NCBI GenBank assembly: GCA_030390025.1
Contig: CM059431.1
Location: forward strand, 99,822,001-99,886,000
Reading direction: 5' to 3'
From: Squalus acanthias
Taxonomy: Eukaryota
Length of the DNA: 64,000 nt
Part shown: piece after piece, positions 1 through 62,500 of the stretch
Position numbering within the stretch: position 1 is the stretch's first letter
Layout of the letters: the number at the start of each line of letters is the position of its first letter
Notes under the pieces: model-generated
Told to the model about the DNA's origin: nothing
What the model saw: the letters and a program-made list of their open reading frames with translations, nothing else
Database searches by the model: none
Position numbers and translations under genes: made by a program

Positions 1-3000
1 CCCTCCGACAATGCGGTGCTCCCTCAGCAATGCCCCTCTGACAGTGCGGCGCTCCCTCAGTACTGCCCCTTCGACAGTGCGGCGCTCCCTCAGCAATGCC
101 CCTCCGACAGTGCAGCGCTCCCTCAGTACTGCACCTCCGACAGTGCGGCGCTCCCTCAGTACTGCCCCTCCGACAGTGCGCGTCTCCCTCAGTACTGCCC
201 CTCCGACAGTGCAGCACTCCCTCAGTACTGCACCTCCGACAGTGCAGCGCTCCCTCAGTATTGCCCCTCCGACAGTGCGGGGCTCCCTCAGTACTGCCCC
301 TCCGACAGTGCGGCACTCCGTCAGTACTGCCCCTCTGACAGTGCGGCGCTCCCCCAGTACTGTCCCTCCGACAGTGCGGCGCTCCCTCAGTACTGCCCCT
401 CCGACAGTGCAGCGCTCCCTCAGTACTGCCCCTCCGACAGTGTGGCACTCCCTCAGTACTGCCCCTCCGACAGTGCAGCGCTCCCTCAGCACTGCCCCTC
501 CGACAGTGCGGCGCTCTCACAGTACCGCCCCTCCAACAGTGCAGCGATCCCTCAGCACTGCCCCTCCAACAGTGCAGTGCTCCCTCATTACTGTCCCTCC
601 AACACTGCGGCGCTCCCTCATTACTGCCCCTCCGACAGTGCGGCGCTCCCTCAGTACTGGACCTCTGACAGTGCAGCACTCCCTCAGTACTGCACCTCTG
701 ACAGTGCAGCGCTCCCTCAGTGCCGCCCCCCCGACAGTGCGGCGCTCCCTCAGTACTGCCCCTCCGACAGTGCGGCGCTGCGTCAGTACTGCCCCTCCGA
801 CAGTGCGGGGCTCCCTCAGTACTGCCCCTCCGACAGTGCAGCGCTCCCTCAGCACTGCCCCTCCGACAGTGCGGCGCTCTCTCAGTACTGCCCCTCCAAA
901 AGTGCAGCGTTCCCTCAGCACTGCCCTTCCGACAGTGCAGCGCTCCCTCAGCACTGCCCCTCCGACAGTGCGGCACTCCCTAAGTACTGGCCCTTCGACA
1001 GTGCGGTGCTCCCTCAGCAATGCCCCTCTGACAGTGCGGCGCTCCCTCAGTACTGCCCCTTCGACAGTGCGGCGCTCCCTCAGCAATGCCCCTCCGACAG
1101 TGCAGCGCTCCCTCAGTACTGCACCTCCGACAGTGCGGCGCTCCCTCAGTACTGCCCCTCCGACAGTGCGCGTCTCCCTCAGTACTGCCCCTCCGACAGT
1201 GCAGCACTCCCTCAGTACTGCACCTCCGACAGTGCAGCGCTCCCTCAGTACTGCCCCTCCGACAGTGCGGGGCTCCCTCAGTACTGCCCCTCCGACAGTG
1301 CGGCACTCCGTCAGTACTGCCCCTCTGACAGTGCGGCGCTCCCCCAGTACTGTCCCTCCGACAGTGCGGCGCTCCCTCAGTACTGCCCCTCCGACAGTGC
1401 AGCGCTCCCTCAGTACTGCCCCTCCGACAGTGTGGCACTCCCTCAGTACTGCCCCTCCGACAGTGCAGCGCTCCCTCAGCACTGCCCCTCCGACAGTGCG
1501 GCGCTCTCTCAGTACCGCCCCTCCAACAGTGCAGCGATCCCTCAGCACTGCCCCTCCAACAGTGCAGTGCTCCCTCATTACTGTCCCTCCAACACTGCGG
1601 CGCTCCCTCATTACTGCCCCTCCGACAGTGCGGCGCTCCCTCAGTACTGGACCTCTGACAGTGCAGCACTCCCTCAGTACTGCACCTCTGACAGTGCAGC
1701 GCTCCCTCAGTGCCGCCCCCCCGACAGTGCGGCGCTCCCTCAGTACTGCCCCTCCGACAGTGCGGTGCTGCGTCAGTACTGCCCCTCCGACAGTGCGGGG
1801 CTCCCTCAGTACTGCCCCTCCGACAGTGCGGCACTCCGTCAGTACTGCCCCTCTGACAGTGCGGCGCTCCCTCAGTACTGCCCCTCTGACAGTGCGGCAC
1901 TCCCTCAGTACTGCCCCTCCGACAGTGCAGCGCTCCCTCAGCACTGCCCCTCCGACAGTGCGGCGCTCTCTCAGTACTGCCCCTCCAAAAGTGCAGCGTT
2001 CCCTCAGCACTGCCCCTCCGACAGTGCAGCGCTCCCTCAGCACTGCCCCTCCGACAGTGCGGTACTCCCTCAGTACTGGCCCTTCGACAGTGCGGCGCTC
2101 CCTCACTACTGGCCCTTCGACAATGCGGCGCTCCCTCAGTACTGCCCTTCCGACAGTGCGGCGCTCCCTCAGTACTGCCCCTCTGACAGTGCGGCACTCC
2201 CTCCGTACTGCCCCTTCGAGTGCGGCGCTCCCTCAGTACGGCCCCTCCGACAGTGCGGCACTCCCTCAGTATTGCCCCTCCGACATTGAGGTGCTCCCTC
2301 AGTACTGCCCCTCCGACAGTGCGGCACTCCCTCAGTACTGCCCCTCAGACTGCGGCACTCCCTCAGTACTGCACCTCCGACAGTGCAGCGCTCCCTCAGT
2401 ACTGCCCCTCCGACAGTGCGGGGCTCCCTCAGTACTGCCCCTCCGACAGTGCGGCACTCCGTCAGTACTGCCCCTCCGACAATGCGGCGCTCCGTCAGTA
2501 CTGCCCCTCCGACAGTGCGGCGCTCCGTCAGTACTGCCCCTCCGACAGTGCGGCGCTCCCTCAGTACTGGCCCTTCGACAGTGCGGCGCTCCCTCACTAC
2601 TGGCCCTTCGACAATGCGGCGCTCCCTCAGTACTGCCCTTCTGACAGTGCGGCGCTCCCTCAGTACTGCCCCTCCGACAGTGCGGCACTCCCTCCGTACT
2701 GCCCCTTCGAGTGCGGCGCTCCCTCATTACGGCCCCTCCGACAGTGCGGCACTCCCTCAGTATTGCCCCTCCGACATTGAGGCGCTCCCTCAGTACTGCC
2801 CCTTCCGACAGTGCGGCACTCCCTCAGTACTGCCCCTCCGACAGTGCGGTGCTCCCTCAGTACTGCCCCTCCGACAGTGCGGCACTCCCTCCGTACTGCC
2901 CCTTCGAGTGCGGCGCTCCCTCAGTACGGCCCCTCCGACAGTGCGGCACTCCCTCAGTATTGCCCCTCCGACATTGAGGCGCTCCCTCAGTACTGCCCCT

Positions 3001-5140
3001 CCGACAGTGCGGCACTCCCTCAGTACTGCCCCTCCGACAGTGCGGCGCTCCCTCAGTACTGCCCCTCCGACAGTGCGGGTCTCCCTCAGTACTGCACCTC
3101 CGACAGTGCAGCGCTCCCTCAGTACTGCACCTCCGACAGTGCGGCGCTCCCTCAGTACTGCCCCTCCGACAGTGCGGGTCTCCCTCAGTACTTCTGCCTC
3201 CGACAGTGCAGCACTCCCTCAGTACTGCACCTCCGACAGTGCAGGCGCTCCGTCAGTACTGCCCCTCCGACAGTGCGGGGCTCCCTCAGTACTGCCCCTC
3301 CGACAGTGCGGCACTCCGTCAGTACTGCCCCTCTGACAGTGCGGCGCTCCCTCAGTACTGTCCCTCCGACAGTGCGGCGCTCCCTCAGTACTGCCCCTCC
3401 GACAGTGCAGCGCTCCCTCAGTACTGCCCCTCCGACAGTGTGGCACTCCCTCAGTACTGCCCCTCCGACAGTGCAGCGCTCCCTCAGCACTGCCCCTCCG
3501 ACAGTGCGGCGCTCTCTCAGTACTGCCCCTCCAACAGTGCAGCGATCCCTCAGCACTGCCCCTCCGACAGTGCAGTGCTCCCTCATTACTGTCCCTCCAA
3601 CACTGCGGCGCTCCCTCATTACTGCCCCTCCGACAGTGCGGCGCTCCCTCAGTACTGCACCTCTGACAGTGCAGCACTCCCTCAGTACTGCACCTCTGAC
3701 AGTGCAGCGCTCCCTCAGTGCCGCCCCCCCGACAGTGCGGCGCTCCCTCAGTACTGCCCCTCCGACAGTGCGGCGCTGCGTCAGTACTGCCCCTCCGACA
3801 GTGCGGGGCTCCCTCAGTACTGCCCCTCCGACAGTGCGGCACTCCGTCAGTACTGCCCCTCTGACAGTGCGGCGCTCCATCAGTACTGCCCCTCCGACAG
3901 TGCGGCACTCCCTCAGTACTGCCCCTCCGACAGTGCAGCGCTCCCTCAGCACTGCCCCTCCGACAGTGCGGCGCTCTCTCAGTACTGCCCCTCCAAAAGT
4001 GCAGCGTTCCCTCAGCACTGCCCCTCCGACAGTGCAGCGCTCCCTCAGCACTGCCCCTCCGACAGTGCGGCACTCCCTCAGTACTGGCCCTTCGACAGTG
4101 CGGCGCTCCCTCACTACTGGCCCTTCGACAATGCGGCGCTCCCTCAGTACTGCCCTTCCGACAGTGCGGCGCTCCCTCAGTACTGCCCCTCCGACAGTGC
4201 GGCACTCCCTCCGTACTGCCCCTTCGAGTGCGGCGCTCCCTCAGTACGGCCCCTCCGACAGTGCGGCACTCCCTCAGTATTGCCCCTCCGACAGTGCAGC
4301 ACTCCCTCAGTACTGCCCCTCCGACATTGAGGTGCTCCCTCAGTACTGCCCCTCCGACAGTGCGGCACTCCCTCAGTACTGCCCCTCCGACAGTGCGGCA
4401 CTCCCTCAGTACTGCACCTCCGACAGTGCAGCGCTCCCTCAGTACTGCCCCTCCGACAGTGCGGCACTCCGTCAGTACTGCCCCTCCGACAGTGCGGCGC
4501 TCCGTCAGTACTGCCCCTCCGACAGTGCGGCGCTCCGTCAGTACTGCCCCTCCGACAGTGCGGCGCTCCCTCAGTACTGTCCCTCCGACAGTGCAGCGCT
4601 CCCTCAGCACTGCCCCTCCGACAGTGCGGCGCTCCCTCAGCACTGCCCCTCCAACAGTGCAGCGCTCCCTCAGTACTGCTCCTCTGACAGTGCAGCACTC
4701 CCTCAGTACTGCCCCTCTGACAGTGCAGCGCTCCCTCAGCACTGCCCCTCCGACAGTGCGGCGCTCCCTCAGTACTGCCCCTCCGACAGTGCGGCACTCC
4801 GTCAGAACTGCCCCTCCGACAGTGCAGCGCCCCCTCAGTCCTGGCCCTTCGACAGTGCGGCGCTCCCTCAGCACTGCCCCTCGACAGTGCAGCACTCCGT
4901 CAGTACTGCCCCTCCGACAGTGCGGCGCTCCCTCAGTACTGGCCCTTCGACAGTGTGGCGCTCCCTCAGCACTGCCCCTCCGACAGTGCAGCGCTCCCTC
5001 AGTACTGCCCCTCCGACAGTGCGGCGCTCCCTCAGTACTGCCCCTCCGACAGTGCGGCGCTGCCTCAGTACTGCCCCTCCGACAGTGCGGCGCTCCCTCA
5101 GTACTGCCCCTCCGACAGTGCGGCGCTGCCTCAGCACTGC
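1..5140 (-). repeat. 33-bp minisatellite (+ strand CAGTACTGCCCCTCCGACAGTGCGGCGCTCCCT), >=155 units, expanded inside a minus-strand DeuSINE; runs off the left edge
   Basis: Direct 33-bp periodicity. At ~5130-5205 it passes into the reverse complement of the SINE 5' part. It explains all long ORFs in 1-5200. Confidence 0.97.
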
Positions 5141-5205
5141 ACTGGGAGTGTCAGCCTGGATTATGTGCTCAGGTCTCTGGAGTGGGGCTGTGAACCCATG
5201 ACCTT
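5130..5205 (-). mobile_element. 5' part (B-box region) of the DeuSINE hosting the 33-bp array
   Basis: Reverse complement reads ggttcacagccccactccagagacctgagcacataatccaggctgacactcccagtgcag, matching the SINE copy at 5790-5850. Confidence 0.9.
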
Positions 5206-11384: not shown

Positions 11385-12270
11385 AAGAAAGAAAGACTTT
11401 GCATTTCTCCAGCGCCTTTCACGACCTCAGGATGCCCCAAAGCACTTTACAGCCAATGAAGTACATTTTGGAGTGTAGTCACTGTTGTAAAGTAGGAAAC
11501 ACGGCAGCCAATTTCCACACAGCAAGCTCCCACAAACAGCAATGTGATAATGACCAGATAATCTGTTTTAGTGATGTTGGTTGAGGGATAGACATTGGCC
11601 AGGACACCGGGGAGAACTCCCCTGCTCTTCTTCTAAATAGTGCCGTGGGATCTTTTACGTCCACCTGAGAGCAGACGGGCCCTCGGTTTAACATCTCATC
11701 CGAAAGACGGCACCTCCGACAGTGCAGCACTCCCTCAGCCATGGCTCAGTGGGTTACACTCTCTCGCCTCTGAGTCAGAAGGTCGTGGGTTCACGTCCCA
11801 CTCCAGGGACTTGAGCACAAAAATCTAGGCTGACACTCCAGTGCAGTGCTGAGGGAGTGCTGCACTGTCGGAGGTGCCGTCTTTCGGATGAGACATTTAA
11901 ACTGAGGCCCCGTCTGCTCTCAGGTGGACGTAAAAGATCCCATGGCACTATTTCGAAGAAGAGCAGGGGAGTTCTCCCCGGTGTCCTGGGCCAATATTTA
12001 TCCCAACATCACTAAAACAGATTATCTGGTCATTGTCACATTGCTGTTCGTGGGAGCTTGCTGTGCACAAATTGGCTGCCGCGTTTCCCACATTACAACA
12101 GTGACTACACTTCAAAAAGTACTTCATTGGCTGTAAAGTGCTTTGGGACTGCCTGAGATCGTGAAAGGCGCTGGGGAAATGCATGTCAGCCTAGATTTCT
12201 GTGCTCAAATCTCATGAGTGGAACAACCCACTGACTTCAAGGCGAGAGCGATACCCACTGAGCCACAGCT
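11385..12270. mobile_element. Minus-strand DeuSINE (11385-11738 plus 12185-12270) with a plus-strand DeuSINE (~11736-12185) nested inside
   Basis: The two parts of the minus copy (tail/core and tRNA head) bracket a complete plus copy. Confidence 0.88.
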
Positions 12271-15184: not shown

Positions 15185-17378
15185 ACCAAGTCCCGTTCGC
15201 CCATCACCCCCTGTGCTCGCTGACCTACATTGGCTCCCGGTTAAGCAACGCCTCGATTTCAAAATTCTCATCCTTGTTTTCAAATCCCTCCATGGCCTCG
15301 ACCCTCCCTATCTCTGTAATCTCCTCCAGCCCCACAACCCCCCGAGATATCTGCGCTCCTCTAATTCTGCCTCTTGAGCATCCCTGATTATAATCGCTCA
15401 ACCTTTGGTGGCCGTGCCTTCAGCTGCCAAGGCCCTAAGCTCTGGAATTCCCTCCCTAAACCTCTCCGCCTCGCTACCTCTCTTTCCTCCTTTAAGACGC
15501 TCCTTAAAACCTACCTCTTTGACCAAGCTTTTGGTCACATCGAATCATAGAAAGCTACAGCATGGAAGGAGGCCATTTCGGCCCATCGTGTCTGCACCGG
15601 CCAACAAAGAGCTATCCAACCTAATCCCACTTCCCAGCTCTTGGTCTGTAGCCCTGCAGGTTAGAGCATCCCAAGTACACATCCAAGTACTTTTTAAACG
15701 TGGTTAGGGTTCCTGCCTCTACCACCCTTTCAGGCAGTGAGTTCCAGACCCCCACAACCCTCTGGGTGAAGAAATTTCCCCTCAAATCCCCTCTAAACCT
15801 TCCCCCAATTACTTTAAATCTGTGCCCCCTGGTTTTTGACCCCTCTGCTAAAGGAAATACGTCCTTTCTATCCACTTTATCTATGCCCCTCATAATTTTA
15901 TACACCTCAATAAGGTCTCCCTTCAGCCTCCTCTGTTCCAAGGAAAACAGACCCAGCCTATCCAGTCTTTCCTCATAGCTAAGATTCTCTACTACCGGCA
16001 ACATCCTTGTAAATCTCCTCTGTACCCTCTCTAGTGCAATCACATCTTTCCTGTAATGTGGTGACCAGAACTGCACACAGTACTCTAGCTGAGGCCTAAC
16101 TAGTGTTTTATACAGTTGAAGCATAACCCCCCTGCTCTTGTATTCTATGCCACAGCTAATAAAGGCAAGTATTCCGTATGCCTTCTTAACCACCTTATCT
16201 ACCTGGCCTGCTACCTTCAGGGATCTGTGGGCATGCACTCCAAGGTCCCTTTGTTCCTCTACGCTACTCAGTGTCCTACCATTTAATGTGTATTCCCTTT
16301 CCTTGTTAACCCTCCCCAAATGCATTACCTCACCCGTCTCCGGATTGAATTCCATTTGCCACTGCTCTGCCCACCTGACCAATTTATTGATATCTTCCTG
16401 CAGTCTACAGCTTCCTTCTTCAGTTTCAACCACACAGCCGATTTTAGTATCATCTGCAAACTTCTTAATCATACCCCCTATATTCAAGTCTAGATCATTG
16501 ATATATACCACAAAAAGCAAGGGACCTAGTACTGAGCCCTGCGGAACCCCACTAGAAACAGCCTTCCAGTCACAAAAACACCCATCAACCATTACCCTCT
16601 GCTTCCTGCCTCCGAGCCAGTTTTGAATCCAACTTGACACTTTGCCCTGGATCCCATGGGCTTTTAACTTCATGACCAGTCTGCCATGTGGAACCTTATC
16701 AAAAGCCTTGCTAAAGTCCATATACACTACATCAAACGCACTACCCTCATCTACCCTCCTTGTTACCTCCTCAAAAAATTCAATCAAGTTTGTCAGACAC
16801 GACCTTCCCTTAACAAATCCGTGCTGACTGTCCTTGATTAATCCGTGTCTTTCTAAATGAAGATTTATCCTGTCCTTCAGAATTCTTTCCAATAATTTTC
16901 CCACCACCGAGGTTAGACTGACTGGCCTGTAATTACTCGGTCTATCCTTTTCTCCCTTTTTAAACAAGGGTACCACATTAGCAGTCCTCCAGTCCTCCGG
17001 CACCACACCTGAAGCCAGAGAGGATTGGAAAATGATGGTCAGAGCCTCTGCTATTTCCTCTTTTGCTTTGCTTAACAGTCTGGGATACATTTCATCCGGG
17101 CCTGGGGATTTATCCACTTTTAAAGCTGCTAAGCCCCTTAATACTTCCTCTCTCACTATGTTTATTTCATCTAATATTTCACACTCCTCCTCCCTGATAG
17201 CAATGTCTGCTTCACCCCTCTCCTTTGTGAAAACAGACGCAAAGTATTCATTAAGCACCCTGCCCTAATTTCTCCTTATGTGGCTCGATGTCAAATATGT
17301 TGTCTTCCAACTCTCCTGTGCAGCGCCTTGGGACGTTTTACTATGTTAAAGGCGCTATATAAATACAAGTTGTCATTG
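15185..17378 (+). mobile_element. L2 3' fragment (15185-15539 plus ~17258-17378) split by a CR1 insertion
   Basis: L2 tail ...gaccaagcttttggtcac|...ctgccctaatttctccttatgtggctcg is contiguous in other copies such as 18270-18310. Confidence 0.85.
15540..17258 (-). mobile_element. 5'-truncated CR1 with an uninterrupted 545-codon RT-containing ORF2 segment (15621-17258)
   Basis: KSPGPD, NYRPVSLTS, QHGF, DFSKAFDKV, GVPQGSVLGP and FADDTK motifs; no stop codons. Confidence 0.96.
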
Positions 17379-26830: not shown

Positions 26831-26926
26831 AACAAATAGTTTTAAAAAATGCTTTAGATAAACATGGTTAAAAAAATAACTCCATCTACACAAGAACATA
26901 AGAATTAGGAGCAGGAGTCGGCCATA

Positions 26927-27160
26927 CAGCCCCTCGAGCCTGCCCCACCACACGGCCCCTCGAGCCTGCTCCACCACACGGCCCCTCGAGCCTGCTCCAC
27001 CTCACGGCCCCTCGAGCCTGCTCCACCATACGGCCCCTTGAGCCTGCTCCGCCACACGGACCCTCGAGCCTGCTCCACCACACGGCCCCTTGAGCCTGCT
27101 CCGCCCCACGGCCCCTCGAGCCTGCTCCACCACACGGCCCCTCGAGCCTGCTCTGCCATT
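26927..27160. repeat. 9 x 26-bp tandem repeat CGGCCCCTCGAGCCTGCTCCACCACA
   Basis: Units start at 26927, 26953, ... 27135; a single copy is present in other CR1 tails. Confidence 0.93.
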
Positions 27161-27360
27161 CAATAAGATCATGGCTGATCTTTGACCTCAACTCCACTTT
27201 CCCGCCCATCTCCATATCCCTCGATTCCCCTAGAGTCCAAAAATTATCGAGCTCAGCCTTAAATATGCTCATGATGCGGAGATGCCGGTGTTGGACTGGG
27301 GTGGACAAAAATGAGAAGTCGCACAACACCAGGTTGTAGTCCAACAGTTTTATTTGAAAT

Positions 27361-27395
27361 TACGAGCTTTCGGAGCGCTGCTCCTTCATCAGGTG
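27361..27395 (-). ncRNA. Minimal type I hammerhead ribozyme motif (mirror copy)
   Basis: Reverse complement: CAC-CUGAUGA-A-GGAGC-agc-GCUCC-GAAA-GCUC^GUA. Confidence 0.72.
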
Positions 27396-27404
27396 CAGTC
27401 ACTG

Positions 27405-27440
27405 TACCTGACGAAGGAGCAGCCGCTCCGAAAGCTCGTA
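27405..27440 (+). ncRNA. Minimal type I hammerhead ribozyme motif
   Basis: UAC-CUGACGA-A-GGAGC-agcc-GCUCC-GAAA-GCUC^GUA: conserved core, 5-bp helix II, palindromic AGCU helix III, UAC/GUA helix I. Confidence 0.75.
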
Positions 27441-28064
27441 ATCTCAAATAAAACTGTTGGACTATAACCTGGTGTTGTGCGACTTCTCATTTTTAAATAT
27501 GCTCAACGACTCAGCATCCGCAGCCCTCTGGGGCAGAGAATTCCAAAGATTTATCACCCTCTGAGTGAAGAAATTATACCTTGTCTATTCCAGTACGTGG
27601 GACTGAACAGCACAGTTTACGGGCACTTGTAATAGAAATAATGGAGAATGAAAGACTGCAGAAAAAATATAAAAAGGCAGTCGCTGGCTAGGCTTAGTAA
27701 CCCCGGTTTGGAGAGGTACAGCGAGCATTGCGCTGGCCCAGTGCACGGGTGAACTCACCCCCACGGCTCAGTGGAGGTGGCACTGAATTTTGTGAGACAA
27801 GGCCTGCCCCCCTAATTTGAAAAGGGCTCAGGAAAAGCTTGCCTGGAGAGCTTGACCTGTGGGACAGGTTGGGTTTATTTTGGGGTGGGGGGTGGTGGGG
27901 GGCGGATGTAGAGAGCAAAACCTGGCAAGTAAGCAGGTCTTCCTAAAAGATGAATTTGTGATTGCCCGAGGTCGTAAGGTTTGGGGTTTGGATTTTCCTG
28001 GGCCTGTGGGAAACCTGAGAGGATGGGGGACTTCCACCAACCTCCAGGGTCCTGCCAGCAACTC

Positions 28065-35507: not shown

Positions 35508-36007
35508 NNNNNNNNNNNNNNNNNNNNNNNNNNNNNNNNNNNNNNNNNNNNNNNNNNNNNNNNNNNNNNNNNNNNNNNNNNNNNNNNNNNNNNNNNNNNN
35601 NNNNNNNNNNNNNNNNNNNNNNNNNNNNNNNNNNNNNNNNNNNNNNNNNNNNNNNNNNNNNNNNNNNNNNNNNNNNNNNNNNNNNNNNNNNNNNNNNNNN
35701 NNNNNNNNNNNNNNNNNNNNNNNNNNNNNNNNNNNNNNNNNNNNNNNNNNNNNNNNNNNNNNNNNNNNNNNNNNNNNNNNNNNNNNNNNNNNNNNNNNNN
35801 NNNNNNNNNNNNNNNNNNNNNNNNNNNNNNNNNNNNNNNNNNNNNNNNNNNNNNNNNNNNNNNNNNNNNNNNNNNNNNNNNNNNNNNNNNNNNNNNNNNN
35901 NNNNNNNNNNNNNNNNNNNNNNNNNNNNNNNNNNNNNNNNNNNNNNNNNNNNNNNNNNNNNNNNNNNNNNNNNNNNNNNNNNNNNNNNNNNNNNNNNNNN
36001 NNNNNNN
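35508..36007. other. Assembly gap (500 N, probably a nominal size)
   Basis: Run of N preceded by a CT-rich tract. Confidence 0.99.
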
Positions 36008-37174: not shown

Positions 37175-40100
37175 AGTGAGGCATGTATGGGGACCCAGGA
37201 GGTAGTGATGGAGGAGCCTCAGCCCTTGCTCTTGTCCAACAGTTACGAGGTTCTTACTCTCTGTGTGGGCGAGAGCAGGGACTGCAGTGAGGATGAGCAA
37301 ATTGACCACAGCACCGTGGTACAGGGAGCCATTCAAGTGGGGGGAGCAAAAAGAAATGTGGTAGTGGTAGTGGTAGTGGTAGGGGACAGTATAGTTAGAA
37401 GGATAGACACTGTTCTCTGCAGCCAAGAGCATGAGTCCCAAAGGCTGTGTTGCCTGCCCAGTGCCAAGGTTAAGGACATCTCCTCTGGGCTGTAAAGGAA
37501 CTTAGAGTGGGAGGAGAAAGATCCAATTGTCATGGTCCATGTAGGTACTAACAACATAGGTAGGACAAAGAAAGAGGTTCTGCTGAGGGAGTCTGAGCAG
37601 CTAGGGACTAAATTAAAAAGCAGAACCACAAAGGTAATAATCTCTGGATTACTACCTGAGCCACGTGCAAATTGGCATAGGGTAAATAAGGTCAGAGAGA
37701 TGAACGAGTGGCTCAAAGATTGGTGTGGGAGAAATGGGTTTCGATTCTTGGGGCACTGGCACCAGTACTGGGGAAAGAGGGAGCTGTTCCGTCGAGACGG
37801 GCTTCACTTTAACCATGCTGGGACCAGTGTCCTGGCGAATCGAATAACTAGGGCTGTAGATAGGGCTTTAAACTAAATAGTGGAGGGGAGGGATACGCTG
37901 AGAGAAAATTAAAAAAGTTAAAGAAAAATGAAAAGGCAAAAGTGCAGGGTTGCAATTATGGTAATAATAACCAGAGTGTGACAGGAAGGGACAGAGCGTA
38001 TACACAGAAAGAGGGGTCAGAGTAGGGAAAAATGGTAAAAAGACAAAATTAAAAGCTCTATATCTGAATGCACACAGCATTCGTAACAAGATAGATGTGT
38101 TGACAGCACAAATAGAAATAAATGGGTATGATCTGATAGGCATTACAGAGACGTGGTTGCAAGGTGACCAAAGCTGGGAACTGAATATTCAGGGGTATTT
38201 GCCATTTCGTAAGGATAGGCAGAAAGGAAAAGGAGGTGGTGTAGCTCTGTTAATAAGGGATGAGATCAGTGCAGTGGTGAGAAATGATATTGGCTTGGAA
38301 GATCAAGACTCAGGGGGTGATTTTGCCAGCCCTGGGGAGGTGGATTTGGAGGCGGGACTGCCAGGAAAATGGCAGAATCTGGGGGCGGTACCCATCCCGC
38401 CCCCAACCCGCCTCTGTGCCATTTTCCCAGGAGGCGGGTAGCCGACCCGCGCCGCGTCCCGTCTCCTGGAGGCGGGAAGGGGATTACAGCCACTGAACTG
38501 CCTGAAACTTTGTTTCTCTCTCCACAGATGCTGTCTGACCTGCTGAGTATTTCCAGTATTTTCTGTTTTTATTTCAGATTTCCAGCATCTGCAGTATTTT
38601 GCTTTTGTATAAAGAGAGAGAAGATAGATTATGAGAGTAAGCTAGCAAAAATATAAAAACAGATAGTAAAAGCTTCTACAGGTATATAAAAAGGAAGAGA
38701 GTAGCTAAAGTAAACGTTGGTCCCCTAGAGGATGAGTCTGGGGAATTAATAATGGGAAACAGGGAAATGGCGGAGATTTTGAACAAATATTTTGTATCGG
38801 TCTTCATGGTAGAAGACACTAAAAGCATCCCAATAATAATAGATAATCAAGGGGCTATTGGGGTGGGGTGGGGGTGGGGATGGGGGTGGGGGCGGGGAGG
38901 GGGGAACTTAAAACAATCACTATCACTAGAGAGAAAGTACTAGGCAAACTAATGGGACTAAAGGTGGACAAGTCCCCTGGACCCATTGGCCTGCAGCCTA
39001 GGGTCTTAAAAGAGGTGGCTGCAGAGATAGTGGATGCATTGGTTGTAATCTACCAAAATTACCTGGATTCTGGAGAGGTCCAGCGGACTGGAAAACCGCA
39101 AATGTAACACACCTATTTAAGAAAGGAGGGAGACAGAAAGTAGGCAACTATCGACCAGTTAGCCTAACATCTGTCACTGGGAAAATGCTGGAGTCCATCA
39201 TTAAGGAAGTGGTCGCAGGACATTTAGAAAATCATAATATATTCAAGCAGAGTCAGCATGGTTTTATGAAAGGGAAATCATGTTTGACAAATTTGCTGGA
39301 GTTCTTTGAGGATGTAACGAGCAGGGTGGATAAAGGGGAACCAGTAGATGTGGTGTATTTGGATTTCAAGAAGGCATTCGATAAGGTGCCACATAAAAGG
39401 TTCCTGCACAAGATAAGAGCTCACGGGGTTGGGGGTAATATTTAAGCATGGATAGGGGATTGGCTAATTGACAGAAAACAGAGAGTCGGGATAAATGGGT
39501 CACTTTCAGGTTGGCAAACTGTAACTAGTGGGGTGCCGCAGGGATCAGTGCTGGGGCCTCAGCTGTTTACAATCTATATTAATGACTTGGATGAAGGGAC
39601 CAAGTGTAATTTAGCCAAATTTGCTGATGATACAAAGATAGGTGGGAAAGCAAATTGTGTGGAGGACGAAAAGAATCTCCAAAGGGATATAGATAGGCTA
39701 AGTGAGTGGGCAAATATCTGGCAGATGGAGTATAATGTGGGAAAATGTGAGGTTATCCACTTTGGTAGGAAAAATAAAAAAGCAAATTATTTAAATGGAG
39801 AGAGATTACAAAATGCTGAGGTACAGAGGGATCTGGGGGTCCTTGTACATGAATCACAAAAAGTTAGCATGCAGGTACAGCAAGTAATTAGGAAGGCAAA
39901 TGGAGTGTTGGCCTTTATTGCAAAGGGAATGGAGTATAAAAGTAGGGAAGTCCTGTTACAACTGTACAGGGCATTGGTGAGACCACACCTGGAGTACTGC
40001 GTACAGTTTTGGTCTCCTTATTTAAGGAAGGATAAACTTGCTTTGGAGGCAGTTCAGAGAAGGTTCACGAGGTTGATTCCAGAGATGAAGGGGTTGTCTT

Positions 40101-40550
40101 ATGAAGAAAGATTGAGCAGGTTGGGCCTATACTCATTGGAGTTTAGAAGAATGAGAGGGAATCTTATTGAAACATATAAGATTCTGAAGGGGCTTGACAG
40201 GGTAGATGCAGAGAGGATGTTTCCCCTCGTGGGGGAATCTAGAACTAGGGGGCATAATTTCAGAATAAGGGGGCACCCATTTAAGACGGAGATGAGGAGG
40301 AATTTCTTCTCTCAGAGGGTCGTGAATCTTTGAAATTCTCTTCCCCAGAGAGCTGTGGAGGCTGGGTCAGTGAATATATTCAAGGTGGAGATAGACAGAT
40401 TTTATGAACGATAAGGGAGTCAAGGGTTATGGGGAGCGGGCAGGGAAGTGGAGTTGTGGCCAAGATCAGATCAGCCATGATCTTATTGAATGGCAGAGCA
40501 GGCTCGAGGGGCCAAGTGACCGACTCCTGCTCCTATATCTTATGTTCATA
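37175..40550 (+). mobile_element. Long degenerate CR1: ORF1 SGNH-esterase, ORF2 endonuclease start, RT and tail; internal deletion filled by a MITE end (38313-38490) and a PLE-like piece (38500-38610)
   Basis: GDSIVR, HVGTNNI, DGLHFN; YLNAHSIRNK, GITETW, RKDR...GGGVAL; PQGSVLGP, FADDTK; several stops and frameshifts. Confidence 0.93.
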
Positions 40551-49744: not shown

Positions 49745-50384
49745 TCTTCTGGTAGATGCCTCAGTTGAGGAAGCGCTGAGTCAGGGTGGGGTGAGGGGTT
49801 TTCCAGGAGCTCACACTGGAGATGGGTGTCAGGCTCCAAACTTCCACAACAATGAGTAGGCCTGCTAAAGTTTCCCCAGACCTGAAACAACTAAGTTCTG
49901 CCACCTGCAAATGATGATTGCTCCAAACTACTCTTTAATGGTGGAGCTGCAGCCGAAAGCCAGCAAGCCAAATGTGTACCCGCCAGGTTTCACCGTCGTG
50001 TTCCAGAGGAGACGGCATCACGTGGAAAACCGGTAAAAATCCGAAAGGCCTGTGAAAATGGCATTATGGAGCCAATTAGGAGCTTGACAATGGCCTTAAG
50101 GGCCTATCCCGCCTCTTGGAGGCGGGTCGGGAACTGGATCTGAAAACGCGCATCTGGGAAAATTCAGTGGAGGCGGGATGGGGGCGGGGGCGGGATCGGG
50201 CCCACCCGCCATTTTTTCCAATTTTAACCCCCCACACGCCTCCAATCCTGCCTCAACGGCCCTATGAAAATCGAGACCTCTCTCTCAGACAACACCTTCC
50301 CATCTTGGACACACTTACTGCTTCTTCCTCTCAACATACGCACCAGGCTAAAGTGCCTCACACATCCTCCCCACCCTTTCACAA

Positions 50385-50743
50385 GCCCCCACCACCCTGC
50401 ACACCCCACACACCCCACACACACCCACCCACACACCCCACACACACACACACCCCACACACACACACCCCACACACACACCCCACACACACACCCCACA
50501 CACACACACCCCCCACTCACACACCCACCCACACACCCCACACACACACACACCCCCCACACACACACACACCCCACCCCACACACACACACCCCACACA
50601 CACCCTACACACACCCCACACACACACACCTCACACACACACACCCCACACACACACACCTCACACACACCCCCCACACACACCTCACACACACCCCCCC
50701 ACACACACACACACACACACCCCACACACCCCACACACACACT

Positions 50744-50777
<34 letters not shown>

Positions 50778-51172
50778 CACACACACTCTCCCCACACACA
50801 CACACCCCCCACACACAAACTCCCCACACACACACACACCCCACACCCCCCCCCACACACACTCCCCACACACACACACACACCCCACACACACACACTC
50901 CCCCCACACACACACACACACCCCACACACACACACACATCCCACACACACACATCCCACACACACACACACACGCACACCCCACACACACAGACCCCAC
51001 ACACACAGACCCCACACGGACCCCACACGGACCCCACACCCCACACACACCCCACACACACCCCACACACACACACCCCACACACACCCCACACACAGAC
51101 CCCACACCCCCCCACACAGACCCCACACCCCCCCCACACACACACACCCCCCCACACACACACACGCACAAA
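50385..51172. repeat. Degenerate (CA)n / CACACACCC simple repeat
   Basis: Base composition. Confidence 0.95.
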
Positions 51173-51354
51173 CACAGTTTTTAGTCAACAATAAATTGGC
51201 CAGCAGACATTGACAGATCTTGTGTTCGTACCGAATTTAGAAATTATATACCATCAAGCAAGCACAACGAAGCATGGGATCAGCAGTTTCACGAAGATCA
51301 AGATGACATGATGTTATCATCATTTGAAGCTTCAATTCCCACCTGTGTTCATGA

Positions 51355-52405
51355 ACTCCAGAGCCTTGAGCACATAATCCAGGCTGACACTCCTAAATAG
51401 TACTGAGTGCAGTACTGAGGGAGCATCGCACTGTCGGAGGATCAGTACTGAGGGAGCGCCGCACTGTCGGAGAGGCAGTACTGAGGGAGCGCTGCACTGT
51501 CGGAGGGGCAGTACTGATGGAGTGCCGCACTGTCGGAGGGTCAGTACTGAGGGAGCGCCGCACTGTCGGAGGGGCAGTACTGAGGGAGCGCGGCACTGTC
51601 GGAGGGTCAGTACTGAGGGAGTGTCGCACTGTCGGAGGGGCAGTACTGAGGGAGCGCGGCACTGTCGGAGGGGTAGTACTGAGGGAGTGCCGCACTGTCG
51701 GAGGGGCAGTACTGAGGGAGTGCCGCACTGTCGGAGGGGCAGTACTGAGGGAGCGCCGCACTGGCGGAGGGGCGGTACTGAGTGAGTGCTGCACTGTCGG
51801 AGGGGCAGTAATGAGGGAGCGCTGCACTGTCGGAGGGGCAGTACTGAGGGAGTGCTGCACTGTTGGAGGGTCAGTACTGAGGGAGCGCTGCACTGTCAGA
51901 GGGGCGGTACTGAGAGAGCGCCGCACTGTCGGAGGGGCAGTACTGAGGGAGCGCCGCACTGTCGGAGGGGCAGTACTGAGGGAGCCCCGCACTGTCGGAG
52001 GGGCAGTACTGAGGGAGTGCCGCACTGTCGGAGGAGCAGTACTGAGGGCGTGCTGCACTGTCGGAGGGGCAGTACTGAGGGAGCGCCGCACTGTCGGAGA
52101 TGCCGTCTTTTGGATGAGATGTTAAACCGAGGCCTCTCGGGTGGACATAAAAAATCCCACTGCACTATTTTGAAGAAGAGCAGGGGAGTTCTCCCCGGTG
52201 TCCTGGGGCCAATATTTATCCCTCAAACAACATCACTAAAACAGATTATCTGGTCATTATCACATTGCTGTTTGTGGGAGCTTGCTGTGCGCAAATTGGC
52301 TGCCGCGTTTCCTACATTACAACAGTGACCACACTTCAAAAAGTACTTCATTGGCTGTGAAGCATTTCGGGACATCCTGAGATTGTGAAAGGCGCTGTAG
52401 ATATT
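51355..52405 (+). mobile_element. DeuSINE (5'-clipped) containing 21 units of the 33-bp repeat (~51400-52100)
   Basis: cactg motif every 33 bp from 51429 to 52089, then Deu core and tail. Confidence 0.93.
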
Positions 52406-53204
52406 ATTATTTTTTCCTCGATCTCTTCCTTTCTCTCTCGCTTTCTCTCATCATCGGGACTTCTACTTTTGAGCTCGGCTCCACTTCTCTGGGTAATGCT
52501 GAAGTGTTCCCAGTCGGTTGTGGGACGCTTATGCTGGTAATCCCTTCAGGACCCCATGCTCGAGATATAAACAGCCCTCTCCCAGGGCCTGAACCACCTG
52601 GACAAGATCTCAATCAAGATCACTAGCATTTAGCAAAAGAATCAATTCTTCGTTTTCTCCACTCCTCCACCTCCAATCCAGTATGTTCACAGAAGAAATC
52701 ATTGATATCATTCCAACCGAACGCCCAGGGTATCTTTCCTTATGCTTCACATTTCACAGCTGTCCTCTATACAGCTCAACTCACCCACAAGTATCCTGTT
52801 AATACCCAATTAACATTGGATGATGGATCCCAATTAGTTCCAATGGTTCTGCCAGTAAGATAATCCTATAAACCTCAAACTAAGTTAAGACAACGCCCAA
52901 GGCCCTTCCCTTAATCACTGAGATGGACGTTAAGTCCAGGTGGAGAATTTGGCCAGAAAAGATCGCACGTGACTCGAGTAGTTTTAGCTGAGAGTAGATG
53001 TTGTTTTATTTCACCGTGCAGCCCCATAATTTAAGTGAGATTAGTTACTCTGAAAGGAGAGAGTTCAAAATAAAACTAAACAGGACTTTCGACAGACTGC
53101 TCTATATCTGTGCTCTATACAACCAAATGTGCAGAGTGTTAAAATAAATATTGATAATTAATTATGCTGTGAAGAAAGACTTGCATTTATATAGCGCTTT
53201 TCAC

Positions 53205-55929
53205 TAACGCTGTGTGTTCTCTAAACTGTGGGGAGTGACAGACTGTCTGAACTCAGGAGTGTTGGCGCTGTGCGTTCTCTGAACTCGGGAGTGTGAGCGC
53301 TGTGCGTTCTCTGAACTCGGGAGTGTTGGCGCTGTGCGTTCTCTGAACTCGGGAGTGTGAGCGCCGTGCGTTCTCTGAACTCGGGAGTGTGAGCGCCGTG
53401 CGTTCTCTGAACTCGGGAGTGTGAGCGCTGTGCGTTCCCTGAACTCGGGAGTGTGAGCGCTGTGCGTTCTCTGAACTCGGGAGTGTGAGCGCTGTGCGTT
53501 CCCTGAACTCGGGAGTGTTGGCGCTGTGCGTTCTCTGAACTCGGGAGTGTGAGCGCCGTGCGTTCTCTGAACTCGGGAGTGTGAGCGCTGTGCGTTCCCT
53601 GAACTCGGGAGTGTGAGCGCTGTGTGTTCCCAGAACTCGGGAGTGTGAGCGCTGTGCGTTCTCTGAACTCGGGAGTGTGAGCGCTGTGCGTTCCCAGAAC
53701 TCAGGAGTGTGAGCGCTGTGCGTTCTCTGAACTCGGGAGTGTGAGCGCTGTGCGTTCTCTGAACTCGGGAGTGTGAGCGCCGTGCGTTCTCTGAACTCGG
53801 GAGTGTTGGCGCTGTGCGTTCCCAGAAATCGGGAGTGTGAGCGCTGTGCGTTCTCTGAACTCGGGAGTGTGAGCGCTGTGCGTTCTCTGAACTCGGGAGT
53901 GTTGGCGCTGTGCGTTCCCAGAAATCGGGAGTGTGAGCGCTGTGCGTTCTCTGAACTCGGGAGTGTGAGCGCCGTGCGTTCTCTGAACTCGGGAGTGTGA
54001 GCGCTGTGCGTTCCCAGAAATCGGGAGTGTGAGCGCCGTGCGTTCTCTGAACTCGGGAGTGTGAGCGCCGTGCGTTCTCTGAACTCGGGAGTGTGAGCGC
54101 CGTGCGTTCTCTGAACTCGGGAGTGTGAGCGCCGTGCGTTCTCTGAACTCGGGAGTGTGAGCGCTGTGTGTTCCCTGAACTCGGGAGTGTGAGCGCCGTG
54201 CGTTCCCAGAAATCGGGAGTGTGAGCGCTGTGTGTTCCCAGAACTCGGGAGTGTGAGCGCCGTGCGTTCTCTGAACTCGGGAGTGTGAGGGCCGTGCGTT
54301 CTCTGAACTCGGGAGTGTGAGCGCCGTGCGTTCTCTGAACTCGGGAGTGTGAGCGCCGTGCGTTCTCTGAACTCGGGAGTGTGAGCGCTGTGCGTTCTCT
54401 GAACTCGGGAGTGTGAGCGCTGTGCGTTCCCTGAACTCGGGAGTGTGAGCGCTGTGCGTTCCCTGAACTCGGGAGTGTGAGCGCCGTGCGTTCTCTGAAC
54501 TCGGGAGTGTGAGCGCTGTGCGTTCTCTGAACTCGGGAGTGTGAGCGCTGTGTGTTCCCTGAACTCGGGAGTGTGAGCGCCGTGCGTTCCCTGAACTCGG
54601 GAGTGTGAGCGCCGTGCGTTCTCTGAACTCGGGAGTGTGAGCGCTGTGTGTTCCCTGAACTCGGGAGTGTGAGCGTTGTGCGTTCTCTGAACTCGGGAGT
54701 GTTGGCGCTGTGCGTTCTCTGAACTCGGGAGTGTGAGCGCTGTGCGTTCCCTGAACTCGGGAGTGTGAGCGCCGTGCGTTCTCTGAACTCGGGAGTGTGA
54801 GCGTTGTGCGTTCTCTGAACTCGGGAGTGTGAGCGTTGTGCGTTCTCTGAACTCGGGAGTGTTGGCGCTGTGCGTTCTCTGAACTCGGGAGTGTGAGCGC
54901 CGTGCGTTCTCTGAACTCGGGAGTGTGAGCGCCGTGTGTTCCCTGAACTCGGGAGTGTGAGCGCTGTGCGTTCCCTGAACTCGGGAGTGTGAGCGCTGTG
55001 CGTTCTCTGAACTCGGGAGTGTGAGCGCTGTGCGTTCTCTGAACTCGGGAGTGTGAGCGCCGTGCGTTCTCTGAACTCGGGAGTGTGAGCGCTGTGCGTT
55101 CTCTGAACTCGGGAGTGTGAGCGCCGTGTGTTCCCTGAACTCGGGAGTGTGAGCGCTGTGCGTGCTCTGAACTCGGGAGTGTGAGCGCTGTGCGTTCTCT
55201 GAACTCGGGAGTGTGAGCGCTGTGCGTTCTCTGAACTCGGGAGTGTGAGCGCTGTGCGTTCTCTGAACTCGGGAGTGTGAGCGCTGTGCGTTCTCTGAAC
55301 TCGGGAGTGTGAGCGCTGTGCGTGCTCTGAACTCGGGAGTGTGAGCGCCGTGTGTTCACTGAACTCGGGAGTGTGAGCGCCGTGCGTTCTCTGAACTCGG
55401 GAGTGTGAGCGCTGTGTGTTCACTGAACTCGGGAGTGTGAGCGCTGTGCGTTCTCTGAACTCGGGAGTGTGAGCGCCGTGCGTTCTCTGAACTCGGGAGT
55501 GTGAGCGCTGTGCGTTCGCTGAACTCGGGAGTGTGAGCGCTGTGCGTTCTCTGAACTCGGGAGTGTGAGCGCTGTGCGTTCCCTGAACTCGGGAGTGTGA
55601 GCGCTGTGCGTTCTCTGAACTCGGGAGTGTGAGCGCCGTGCGTTCCCTGAACTCGGGAGTGTGAGCGCTGTGCGTTCCCTGAACTCGGGAGTGTGAGCGC
55701 TGTGCGTTCTCTGAACTCGGGAGTGTGAGCGCTGTGCGTTCTCTGAACTCGGGAGTGTGAGCGCCGTGCGTTCTCTGAACTCGGGAGTGTGAGCGCCGTG
55801 CGTTCTCTGAACTCGGGAGTATGAGCGCGGTGCGTTCTCTGAACTCGGGAGTGTGAGCGCTGTGCGTTCTCTGAACTCGGGAGTGTGAGCGCTGTGCGTT
55901 CTCTGAACTCGGGAGTGTGAGCGCTGTGC
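53205..55929. repeat. 32-bp minisatellite GAACTCGGGAGTGTGAGCGCTGTGCGTTCTCT, ~85 units
   Basis: Exact 32-bp period; register is kept at 53281, 53761, 54721, 55201 and 55681. Confidence 0.97.
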
Positions 55930-56165
55930 CTTCACAGGAGCGTAATCAGACAAAATTTGACACTGAGCCACATAAGGAGATATTAGGACAGGTGACCAAA
56001 AGCTTGGTCACAGAGGTTAATTTAAGGAGCATCTTAAAGCAGGAGAGAGAGGCGGAGAGGTTTAGGGAGGGAATTCCAAAGCTTAGGGCTCAGGCAGCTG
56101 AAGGCACGGCCGCCAAGTGACACCGAGACACATAGGAGGTATTCGGACAGGTGACCAAAAGCTTG
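55929..56165 (-). mobile_element. L2 3' fragment; a matching terminal tail lies across the array at 53172-53204
   Basis: cttcacaggagcgtaatcagacaaaatttgacac... as at 8607 and 58470. Confidence 0.85.
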
Positions 56166-59529: not shown

Positions 59530-62500
59530 TACTAAATGGAACAATTTTAAAGGGGGTGCAGGAACAGAGAAGACCTGGGGTTGATGTACACAAATCTTTG
59601 AAGGTGGTAGGACAAGTTGAGAAGGTTGTTAAAAAAACATACGGGATCCTTGGCTTTATTAATAGAGGCATAGAGCACAAAAGCAAGGAAGTTACACTAA
59701 ACCTTTATAAATCACTGGTTAGGCCTCAGCTGGAGTATTGTGGCCAATTCTGAGCACCACACTTCAGGAAGAATATCAAGACCTTGGAGAGGGTGCAGAG
59801 GAGATTTACTAGAATGGTTCCAGGGATGAGGGACTTCAGTTACGTGGAGAGACTGGAGAGGCTGGGGTTGTTCTCCTTAGAGCAGAGAATGTTAAGGAGG
59901 AGATTTATAAGGGGTGTTCAAAATTATGAAGGGTTTTGATAGAGTAAATAAGGAGAAACTGTTTCCAGTGGCAGAAGGGTCGAGAGGGTGAGAGAGTTCC
60001 AGATTTCTACCACCAAAAACACAAAAGGTTAGCATGCAGGTACAGCAAGTAATCAAAAAGGCAAATGGAATGTTGGCCTTTATTTCAAGGGGGTTGGAGT
60101 ATAAAAGCAGGGAAGTCCTGCTACAACTGTACAGGGTATTGGTGAGACCACACCTTGAGTACTGTGTACAGTTTTGGTCTCCTTATTTAAGGAAGGATAT
60201 ACTTGCATTGGAGGCAGTTCAGAGACGATTCACTAGGTTAATTCCAGAGATGAGGGGTTTGACTTATGAGGAAAGGTTGAGCAGGCTGGGCCTATACTCA
60301 TTGGAATTTAGAAGAATGAGAGGTGATCTTATCGAAACATATAAGATACTGAGGGGGCTCGACAGGGTAGATGCAGAGAGGATGTTTCCCCTCATGGGGA
60401 AATCTAGAACTTGGGGGCACAGTCTCAGAATAAAGGGTCGCCCTTTTAGAACTGAGATGAGGAGGAACTTCTTCTCTCAGAGGGTCGTAAATCTGTGGAA
60501 TTTTCTTCCCCAGAGAGCTGTGGAGGCTGGGTCATTAAATACATTTAAAGTGGAGATAGACAGATTTTTGCAAGGCTATATGGGTAGAACTTAAAAACAA
60601 AAAGGGGGCAAGCACTTTGCTGGGAGTGTACTATAGGCCCCCAAACAGTCAGGGGGAGATAGGGGAACAGATATGTAGGCAAATCTCAGAGAAGTGTAGA
60701 AATAATAGGGTAATAATAGTAGGGGATTTCAACTTCCCCAATATTAACTGGGATAGTCAGAGTGTGAAAGGCTTAGAGGGTGCGGAATTCTTAAAGTGCA
60801 TCCAGGAGAGCTTTTAGAGCCAGCATGTAGAAAGTCCTACAAGAGAGGAGGCGGTACTGGACCTAATTCTAGGGAATGTAGCCAGGCAAGTGGTAGAAGT
60901 GTTAGTAGGAGAGCATTTTGGTGACAATGACCATAATTCAGTGAGATTTAAGGTAGTCATGGAAAAGGACAAAGATGGACCAGAAATAAAGGTTCTAAAT
61001 TGGGGGAAGGCCGATTTTAATATGATAAGGCAGGATCTGGCCAAAATGGACTGGGATCAGCTACTTGTAGGAAAATCCACATCAGAGCAGTGGGAGTCTT
61101 TCAGAAAGGAAATAGAGAGAGTACAATGCCAACATGTTCCCGTAAAGGTCAAGGGTGGGACCAACAAGTCCAGGGAACCCTGGATGTCAAGGGATATACG
61201 AGAATGGATTAGGAAAAAAAGGGAGGCTTTTGGCAGATACAAAGGACTAAAAACAGTGGAAGCCCTAGAGGAGTATAGAAAGTGCAGGGGGGTACTTAAA
61301 AAGAAATTAGGAGAGCGAAGAGGGGCCATGAAAAAACACTGGCGGGCAAAATAAAGGAAAATCCCAAGGTGTTTTATAAGTATATTAAGGGCAAGAGGAT
61401 AACCAGGGAAAGAGTAGGGTCCATTAGGGACCAAAGTGGCAATCTGTGTGTAGAGCCAGAAGATGTAGGTGAGGTTTTAAATGAATATTTTGCATCTGTG
61501 TTCACGATGGAGAAGGACGATGTAGGCATAGAAATCAGGCAGGGAGATTGTGATATACTTGAAAAAATTAGTATTGAGAGGGAGGAGGTACTAGCGGTTT
61601 TAGCGAGCATAAAAGTGGATAAATCCCCAGGCCCAGACGAGATGTATCCCAGGCTGCTGTGTGAGACAAGGGAGGAGATTGCTCTGACACAAATTTTCAG
61701 AACCTCTCTGGCCACAGGGGAGGTGCCAGAGGACTGAAGAACAGCTAACGTAGTACCATTATTCAAGAAGGGTAGTAGGGATGAACCAGGGAATTACAGG
61801 CCAGTGAGCCTAACATCAGTGGTAGGGAAATTATTGGAAAAAATTCTGAGGGACAGAATTAGTCTCCACTTGGAGAGGCAAGGATTAATCAAGAATAGTC
61901 AGCATGGCTTTGTCAGTGGGAGATCATGTCTAACCAATTTGATTGAATTTTTCGAGGGGGTGACTAGGTGTGTGGATGAGGGTAGTGCAGTTGATGTGGT
62001 CTACATGGACTTCAGTAAGGCTTTTGACAAAGTCCCGCATGGGAGACTGGTCAAGAAGGTAAGAGCCCATGGGATCCAGGGCAACTTGGCACATTGGATC
62101 CAAAATTGGCTTAGTGGCAGGAGGCAGAGGGTGATGGTCGAAGGTTGTTTTTGTGACTGGAAGCCTGTGTCCAGTGGTGTACCGCAGGGATCGGTGCTGG
62201 GTCCTTTGCTGTTTGTAGTGTACATTAATGATTTAGATATGAATGTAGGAGGTATGATCAGTAAGTTCGCAGATGACACGAAAATTGGTGGGGTGGTAAA
62301 TAGCGAGGAAGGAAACCTCAGGCTACAGGACGATATAGACGGGTTGGTCAGATGGGCAGAACAGTGGCAAATGGAATTTAACCCTGAAAAGTGTGAGGTG
62401 ATGCATTTTGGGAGGACTAACAAGGCAAGGGAATACACAATGAATGGTAGGACCTTAGGAAGGACAGAGGATCAGAGGGACCTTGGTGTGCATGTACATA

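Follow-up and report, generated by a model that had tools for sequence, protein, structure and literature searches.

A 221-bp palindromic insertion with two hammerhead motifs in Squalus acanthias is very probably a doubly truncated Penelope-like retroelement

In the window, by which we mean the whole 64-kb stretch of Squalus acanthias DNA analysed here, a CR1-type LINE remnant is interrupted by a 221-bp insert (27272-27492) that consists of two inverted arms, each with a minimal hammerhead motif, and a short extension at one end. We are confident that an abundant Penelope-like retroelement of the endonuclease type left this insert, which is now dead and consists of two copies that are both 5'-truncated, and marginally more confident of the insert's origin from a Penelope-like element (PLE) as such. 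The truncated inverted pLTR, the one-sided tail, the target-site duplication (TSD) and the minimal hammerhead match the published PLE pattern, and a PLE insertion is therefore the most likely explanation. An initial annotation of this DNA had proposed a link to PLEs; the inverted truncated pLTR anatomy, the one-sided tail, the TSD and three hallmarks of PLE minimal hammerheads (min-HHRs) all support it.

The 13-mer TTAAATATGCTCA borders the insert on both sides (Table 1) and occurs at no third place on either strand of the 64 kb; the chance of an exact 13-mer match at a given place is 1.7e-8. All three aligned uninterrupted copies of the host, taken from the window, are colinear across the site, and the equivalent of the 13-mer is present once in each, so the duplication was made at insertion and is a true TSD. 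The arms (27307-27399 and 27401-27494) are 94.7% identical over 94 columns, differing by four substitutions and by one indel that lies in loop II. The unpaired extension is confined to the left end and is 35 nt long, or 37 nt if the two T's common to the right arm and the TSD are assigned to the TSD. These results confirm the 221-bp insertion with its 13-bp TSD, as well as the 35-bp unique end and the near-perfect inverted repeat of ~94+94 bp, that had been described in the initial annotation. Folding of 27259-27505 gave -171.6 kcal/mol (z = -22.7), and none of 200 shuffles was as stable. The insert is present in one copy within the 64-kb window.

Table 1. Coordinates of the insert, its host and other features of the window
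Feature	Position	Strand	Basis or remark
Host: CR1-type LINE remnant, 5'-truncated (ORF2 end and 3' end), split by insert	26892..27583	-	alignments, tblastn
Left TSD, 13 bp	27259..27271	+	last 1-2 bases also match family 3' end (microhomology)
One-sided extension, 35 nt, read as PLE 'tail'	27272..27306	-	3' terminus of minus-strand copy; unpaired
Main copy, 128 nt: 5'-truncated, tail-bearing family 3' end	27272..27399	-	arm alignment and contigs
Minimal type-I hammerhead motif, main copy	27361..27395	-	motif boxes in arm alignment
Inverted copy, tail-less, 5'-truncated, 93-95 nt	27400..27494	+	last two T's common to right TSD
Minimal type-I hammerhead motif, inverted copy	27405..27440	+	motif boxes in arm alignment
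Right TSD, 13 bp	27493..27505	+	13-mer repeat and intact host copies
Long CR1-type RT frame	15621-17264	-	Pfam RVT_1 E 9e-32
Long CR1-type RT frame	39446-40333	+	
Long CR1-type RT frame	61738-62964	+	Pfam RVT_1 E 7e-36
Assembly gap, 500 N, between simple repeats	35508-36007		
Large minisatellite / simple-repeat arrays with spurious long open frames	517-5200, 50080-52300, 53204-56007		

The initial annotation placed the insertion in a CR1 tail; the host is indeed a CR1-type LINE, but tblastn locates the site within the last ~30 codons of ORF2 and not in the 3' UTR. The host ORF2 aligned to the window's own RT ORF with 58% identity over 31 aa (tblastn, E 6e-10). The insert lies between two converging 3' ends, as originally described: an FGF-domain exon (Pfam FGF E 3e-17) approaches on the plus strand, its stop codon 5.3 kb from the insert, and an EGF-like exon (EGF_2 E 2e-5) approaches on the minus strand, its stop codon at a distance of 5.2 kb. 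The converging genes are presumably FGF14 (FGF-domain exon) and ITGBL1 (EGF-like exon).

Two further repeats in the window were noted. The CR1 remnant that hosts the insert contains, inside its 3' end, 8.9 repeats of a 26-bp unit (90% matches; 26922-27153), a tandem array by which LINE tail sequence has expanded locally. The other, at 11400-12183, is again a long inverted repeat; it is 84% self-complementary over 810 columns and has ~330-bp arms, a short spacer that by eye resembles a SINE fragment, and no hammerhead motif; it is probably a non-autonomous DNA transposon.

The catalytic boxes CUGANGA, GAAA and UH are present in both arms of the insert, and helix II in each arm comprises 5 bp (GGAGC/GCUCC) opened by a G-C pair (G10.1-C11.1); GCUC with the palindromic AGCU is likewise found in each arm. 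In the minus-strand motif, CUGAUGA (27392-27386) is followed by an extra A (27385), helix II (27384-27380/27376-27372) and GAAA (27371-27368), with a predicted cut after 27364 and a helix I of only 2 bp. In the plus-strand motif, CUGACGA (27408-27414) is followed by an extra A (27415), helix II (27416-27420/27425-27429), GAAA (27430-27433) and the palindromic AGCU (27433-27436), with a predicted cut after C27437 and a helix I of 3 bp. Only 15 nt separate the two cores. The motif string given in the initial annotation for two back-to-back minimal hammerheads is correct for both arms, and its cut site at C27437 is correct as a prediction.

A relaxed hammerhead descriptor matched three places in the window, compared with 0.05 per shuffled window (20 shuffles), and two of the three matches were these motifs; the descriptor search suggested earlier thus recovered both. 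The third match (minus strand, 15283) has a variant U3-A8 core within unrelated repeat DNA and was judged to be due to chance. A search with covariance models had also been suggested, and here Rfam returned no hammerhead family at E<=5 (5 matches) or at E<=10 (2 matches). Its matches were limited to generic hairpin (miRNA) and lncRNA families below the gathering score, and identity as a miRNA was rejected.

The copies point outward from the centre, so that whichever side a transcript enters from, the antisense arm is synthesized ahead of the ribozyme. In a 550-nt read-through transcript, the computed probability of helix II was about 9e-16 on both strands; on this folding evidence, both ribozymes are almost surely silent at this locus, held in the long hairpin in which the initial annotation had already expected them to be sequestered. 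Unconstrained cofolding did not yield the helix-III dimer for either arm. Run X6, which is RNA by guess only, contains the family, but its locus-specific junction bins had depths of 0.6-255 versus ~1e5 on repeats, and this run gave no evidence of transcription of this locus.

To describe the family to which the insert belongs, we used contigs and reads aligned to 27165-27400, that is, the left flank and the left arm. These came from four of 21 public runs (X1, X2, X6 and X21); runs X19 and X20, with small word shares, were left out of the contig alignment, and X21 represents another organism and contributed 18 reads only. Bins of the element reached a summed X1 contig depth of 0.2-6.9 million; the CR1 flank reached 0.45-2.3 million, and single contigs had depths of 9-29. 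Summed contig depth is no copy number, and by this measure the abundance of the family appears to be on a par with that of the CR1 tail.

Many contigs with long, unrelated flanks end at the left boundary of the insert. In X1, at least 62 and at least 70 such contigs end at 27270 and 27271 (agreement 0.37 and 0.38, respectively); in X6, at least 13 and at least 16 end at 27269 and 27270, and X21 adds at least three reads. Since contigs with unrelated flanks end at 27270/27271, the extension represents a fixed 3' terminus of the family, which overlaps the TSD by 1-2 bases. The contig data also suggest a second, tail-less family terminus near 27307-27314. Depth in X1 steps from 1.6 to 6.5 million over 27293-27324, a step that is weak in X2 and X6, and this region contains pieces starting at 27312, three X21 reads that come loose at 27314, and a go-back joint to 27309 found in X1 and X2. 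The go-back joints (27387>27272 in X1, 27340>27309 in X1 and X2, and 27303>27272 in X2) may be read as partial tandems at both end classes.

The family does not stop at the centre of the palindrome. In X2, 33 contigs continue past 27399, and their consensus (agreement 0.54) leads into new upstream sequence and does not fold back. Strand changes account for four of the 12 joints recorded (27311/27398, 27330/27369, 27342/27376 in both X1 and X2, and 27347/27384), each represented by one contig per run, whereas none of the 12 lies at 27399/27400. Contigs break at near-perfect palindromes, so additional copies with exactly the same centre would be invisible in these data. Based on the 33 contigs that pass 27399 and the inversions found elsewhere, the palindrome is best described as two 5'-truncated ends of a longer element, joined at insertion. 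For the same two reasons, the proposal in the initial annotation of a distinct small, non-coding, ribozyme-bearing retroelement is not upheld.

For three of the four strand-change joints, the arms are offset by 34-39 nt, which is near the length of the tail. Equal-length cDNAs from two start sites could produce such offsets; however, contigs built from 31-mers span only junctions with offsets of about 34-39 nt or more, and we therefore draw nothing from these values.

The contigs also provide information on individual positions. The upstream continuation of the family, a consensus of low agreement, would place C27400 in the right arm. At 27336, the difference between the arms is a private change, as the other allele makes up 98% of X1 depth; the five arm differences, of which at least this one is private, are consistent with decay after insertion. 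At 27361, the majority allele (80% of X1, 59% of X2 and 94% of X6 depth) would restore a third pair of helix I. Position 27364 is the cleavage-site base C17, and U occurs there in 38-42% of X1 and X2 depth and in 92% of X6 depth, which points to subfamilies with different cleavage triplets. Finally, by eye, the low-agreement upstream consensus could form ~7 bp with the end of the first box and the start of helix II (27385-27399); in full-length RNA this pairing would form an alternative hairpin masking the core, and it is at the 5' side of this hairpin that both arms end.

The features that characterize insertions of EN+ PLEs were found here in combination: a head-to-head inverted and 5'-truncated copy, a tail of 30-40 bp at one end only (here 35-37 nt, 27272-27306/8), and a fixed 3' end (27269-27271 in X1, X6 and X21) with variable 5' truncation. 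Both motifs also carry three of the four hallmarks of PLE min-HHRs that lie outside the descriptor, namely the extra nucleotide 9/10.1 (A27415/A27385), the pair G10.1-C11.1 and the palindromic positions 15.2-16.2 (AGCU). The insert contains no ORF, and no GIY-YIG motif was found in the 64-kb window. Seven DNA pattern scans of viral, metagenome and prokaryote contigs found no loci; vertebrate repeats are not expected in such collections, and the result has no bearing on the family.

A 43-residue open frame in the minus arm was considered as a candidate gene and rejected. It gave 35 candidates among longer proteins, none with E<=0.01, and had no Pfam match; against 1.84 billion representative proteins, no match reached E<=0.001. 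The frame is open only through the private change at 27336, where a stop allele makes up 98% of X1 depth, and it is therefore not a gene.

Given a PLE origin, we slightly favor twin target priming as the route by which the two arms arose; fold-back self-priming is appreciably less probable, and there is a small chance of some other route. Twin priming, with two cDNAs, one per nicked strand, is the most likely mechanism; it offers the simplest mapping of the biochemistry of PAc, a PLE of Anolis carolinensis, onto the anatomy of the insert. In this mechanism, the GIY-YIG/RT protein of the element, supplied in trans, would introduce two nicks, one per strand and 13 nt apart, at an A+T-rich site. 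On the top strand, the free 3' end would prime cDNA synthesis at the tailed end of the RNA, with 1-2 nt of microhomology; on the bottom strand, the 3' end (...AA) would prime internally, at the tail-less start on a U-run, with 2 nt of microhomology. Both cDNAs would halt 7-8 nt upstream of the hammerhead core and be joined head-to-head almost bluntly, and fill-in would yield the 13-bp TSD. The hammerheads would be carried along as part of the pLTR, and RNA reading through from either of the flanking genes would fold into a duplex of ~94 bp instead of an active ribozyme. The observations to which this scheme applies are the TSD, the 5' truncation of both arms, the presence of the two end classes on opposite arms, and the short matches (1-2 nt) that each target end makes with the element.

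The truncations of the two arms end <=1 nt apart, however, which exceeds what twin priming alone predicts. An explanation that retains the PLE origin but derives the second arm from the first, either through fold-back self-priming or with an antisense template, would account for a junction that is symmetric within 1 nt. It would also fit the allele at 27361, as both arms carry the minority allele (20-41% of X1 and X2 depth), which implies one template or one subfamily, and Arkhipova et al. 2013 (PMC3846280, available part) read palindromic inverted junctions as self-priming. With 5' ends that coincide to within 1 nt and this minority allele common to both arms, fold-back is a real rival, although we consider it unlikely on balance. 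It offers no reason for the second arm to end precisely at the tail-less terminus, where it matches the TSD over 2 nt; for PAc, RT initiation at two sites and extension of both strands have been demonstrated in vitro (PMC11167929, available part); and the 5' ends are unequal in other copies, though contigs reveal only large-offset junctions.

It is improbable that the palindrome of 221 bp represents a non-autonomous family in its own right, one whose members are transcribed and mobilized whole. Such a family would have the clean TSD and both family ends that we observed, and precedents appear in the accessible parts of two sources: pLTR sequence alone was mobilisable in trans in the NRPS case (PMC3846280), and retrozymes are non-autonomous PLE derivatives (bioRxiv 10.64898/2026.07.22.740005). 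The breakage of short-read contigs at perfect palindromes could also leave copies with the same centre unseen. Nevertheless, there is a single copy in 64 kb, the 33 X2 contigs follow new upstream sequence past 27399, the 12 joints include four strand changes elsewhere and none at 27399/27400, and the internal start site would be buried in duplex. A related proposal, to which we assign a low probability, is that the near-blunt centre results from a defined 5' end or an RT stop 7-8 nt upstream of the core; stereotyped hairpins of ~220 bp would then recur or move as a unit, and between converging genes the 94-bp duplex in read-through RNA would disable the ribozyme and feed editing or small-RNA silencing of the entire PLE family.

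Two explanations outside the PLE framework are both very improbable. A long inverted repeat and a TSD would also be seen in a fold-back DNA transposon or MITE whose terminal inverted repeats are long, but here the repeat stops 35-37 nt short of the left end and reaches the centre without a spacer, hammerhead cores are present, and the family, like retroelements, combines a single fixed end with 5' truncation of variable extent; with 35-37 unpaired bases at the left and a 5'-truncated family, the ends do not behave as the DNA-transposon TIRs that the initial annotation had named as a counter-indication. An assembly or amplification artefact (fold-back chimera) would be in keeping with the observation that, among the contig pieces listed, none spans the flank-element junction, but there are differences between the arms in 5 of 94 columns, the host resumes in register after an exact TSD at the end of the second arm, and five DNA runs contain 0.52 of the sampled words, though one of these may be the assembly source.

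As one among very many stumps of an abundant repeat, this single locus carries little weight. As a class, however, short inverted PLE stumps preserve, within some 220 bp, a record of the two priming events and of the joining that followed, and their centres, microhomologies and TSD lengths, collected genome-wide, could decide between twin priming and fold-back, a point left open in the available text of Craig et al. (10.1101/2021.04.23.441226) and Frangieh et al. (PMC11167929). Read-through transcription, if it occurs, would make the locus a source of long dsRNA beside two developmental genes.

The systems compared below are cited from the accessible portions of the respective papers. A shark PLE hammerhead was not found in the literature covered, which included few subscription journals and in which the one match to 'shark' described the shape of a ribozyme, and the accessible part of Cervera and De la Pena 2014 (PMC4209133) yielded no shark min-HHR. 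That study gives the extra nucleotide, G10.1-C11.1 and the palindromic positions 15.2-16.2 as hallmarks of PLE min-HHRs, and reports that min-HHR monomers are inactive and dimers weak. Like the metazoan PLE min-HHRs, the Squalus motifs have a type I core, an extra nucleotide before helix II, G10.1-C11.1 and a palindromic helix III position. The min-HHRs of S. mansoni have a helix II of 7-8 bp and a helix I of 4-5 bp (2 bp in D. virilis), whereas the Squalus helix II has 5 bp and helix I has 2-3 bp; opposite-strand motif pairs in S. mansoni are 100-700 bp apart, whereas the Squalus cores are 15 nt apart.

According to the available text of bioRxiv 10.64898/2026.07.22.740005, tandem retrozymes derive from PLE pLTRs and are non-autonomous. 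The Squalus insert resembles animal non-LTR retrozymes, which are present in the only chondrichthyan sampled in that work, in being non-coding, hammerhead-bearing and derived from PLE pLTRs. Unlike the tandem retrozymes, for which a rolling circle has been proposed, the Squalus pair does not form a tandem head-to-tail unit; the two copies are head-to-head, and their ribozymes cannot release a monomer.

Closer in anatomy are the inverted PLE insertions. In the accessible text of Craig et al. (bioRxiv 10.1101/2021.04.23.441226), PLE insertions are 5'-truncated, often with an inverted 5'-truncated copy beside the 5' end, and have a 30-40-bp tail on one end only and variable TSDs. Pen2a_Av of Adineta vaga, as described in the available part of Arkhipova et al. 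2013 (PMC3846280), combines inverted pLTRs with a tail of 31 bp and a TSD of 9 bp; palindromic head-to-head junctions are interpreted there as self-priming. Inverted pLTRs and short 3' extensions are likewise routine in PLEs according to the accessible part of a curation guide (PMC8969392). The Squalus insert shares with Pen2a_Av and the scheme of Craig et al. a head-to-head truncated copy, a 30-40-bp tail at one end, a TSD of ~10 bp and a retroelement target. Unlike in Pen2a_Av, both Squalus copies end within the pLTR, so that neither an ORF nor a direct pLTR is left and the entire insert forms a 221-bp hairpin whose centre is near-blunt.

According to the available text of Frangieh et al. 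2024 (PMC11167929), the PAc (Poseidon) protein of the anole cuts A+T-rich DNA on both strands and extends each of them, and its RT begins at two sites whose spacing equals the tail. The PAc hammerhead cleaves only with the protein and is dispensable for insertion. Whereas the ORF of PAc starts in the hammerhead, the AUG in the Squalus core meets a stop nine codons later. The Squalus insert is like PAc in the following features: the hammerhead lies near the 3' end, two 3' end classes occur one tail apart, the target is A+T-rich, and both of its strands are used.
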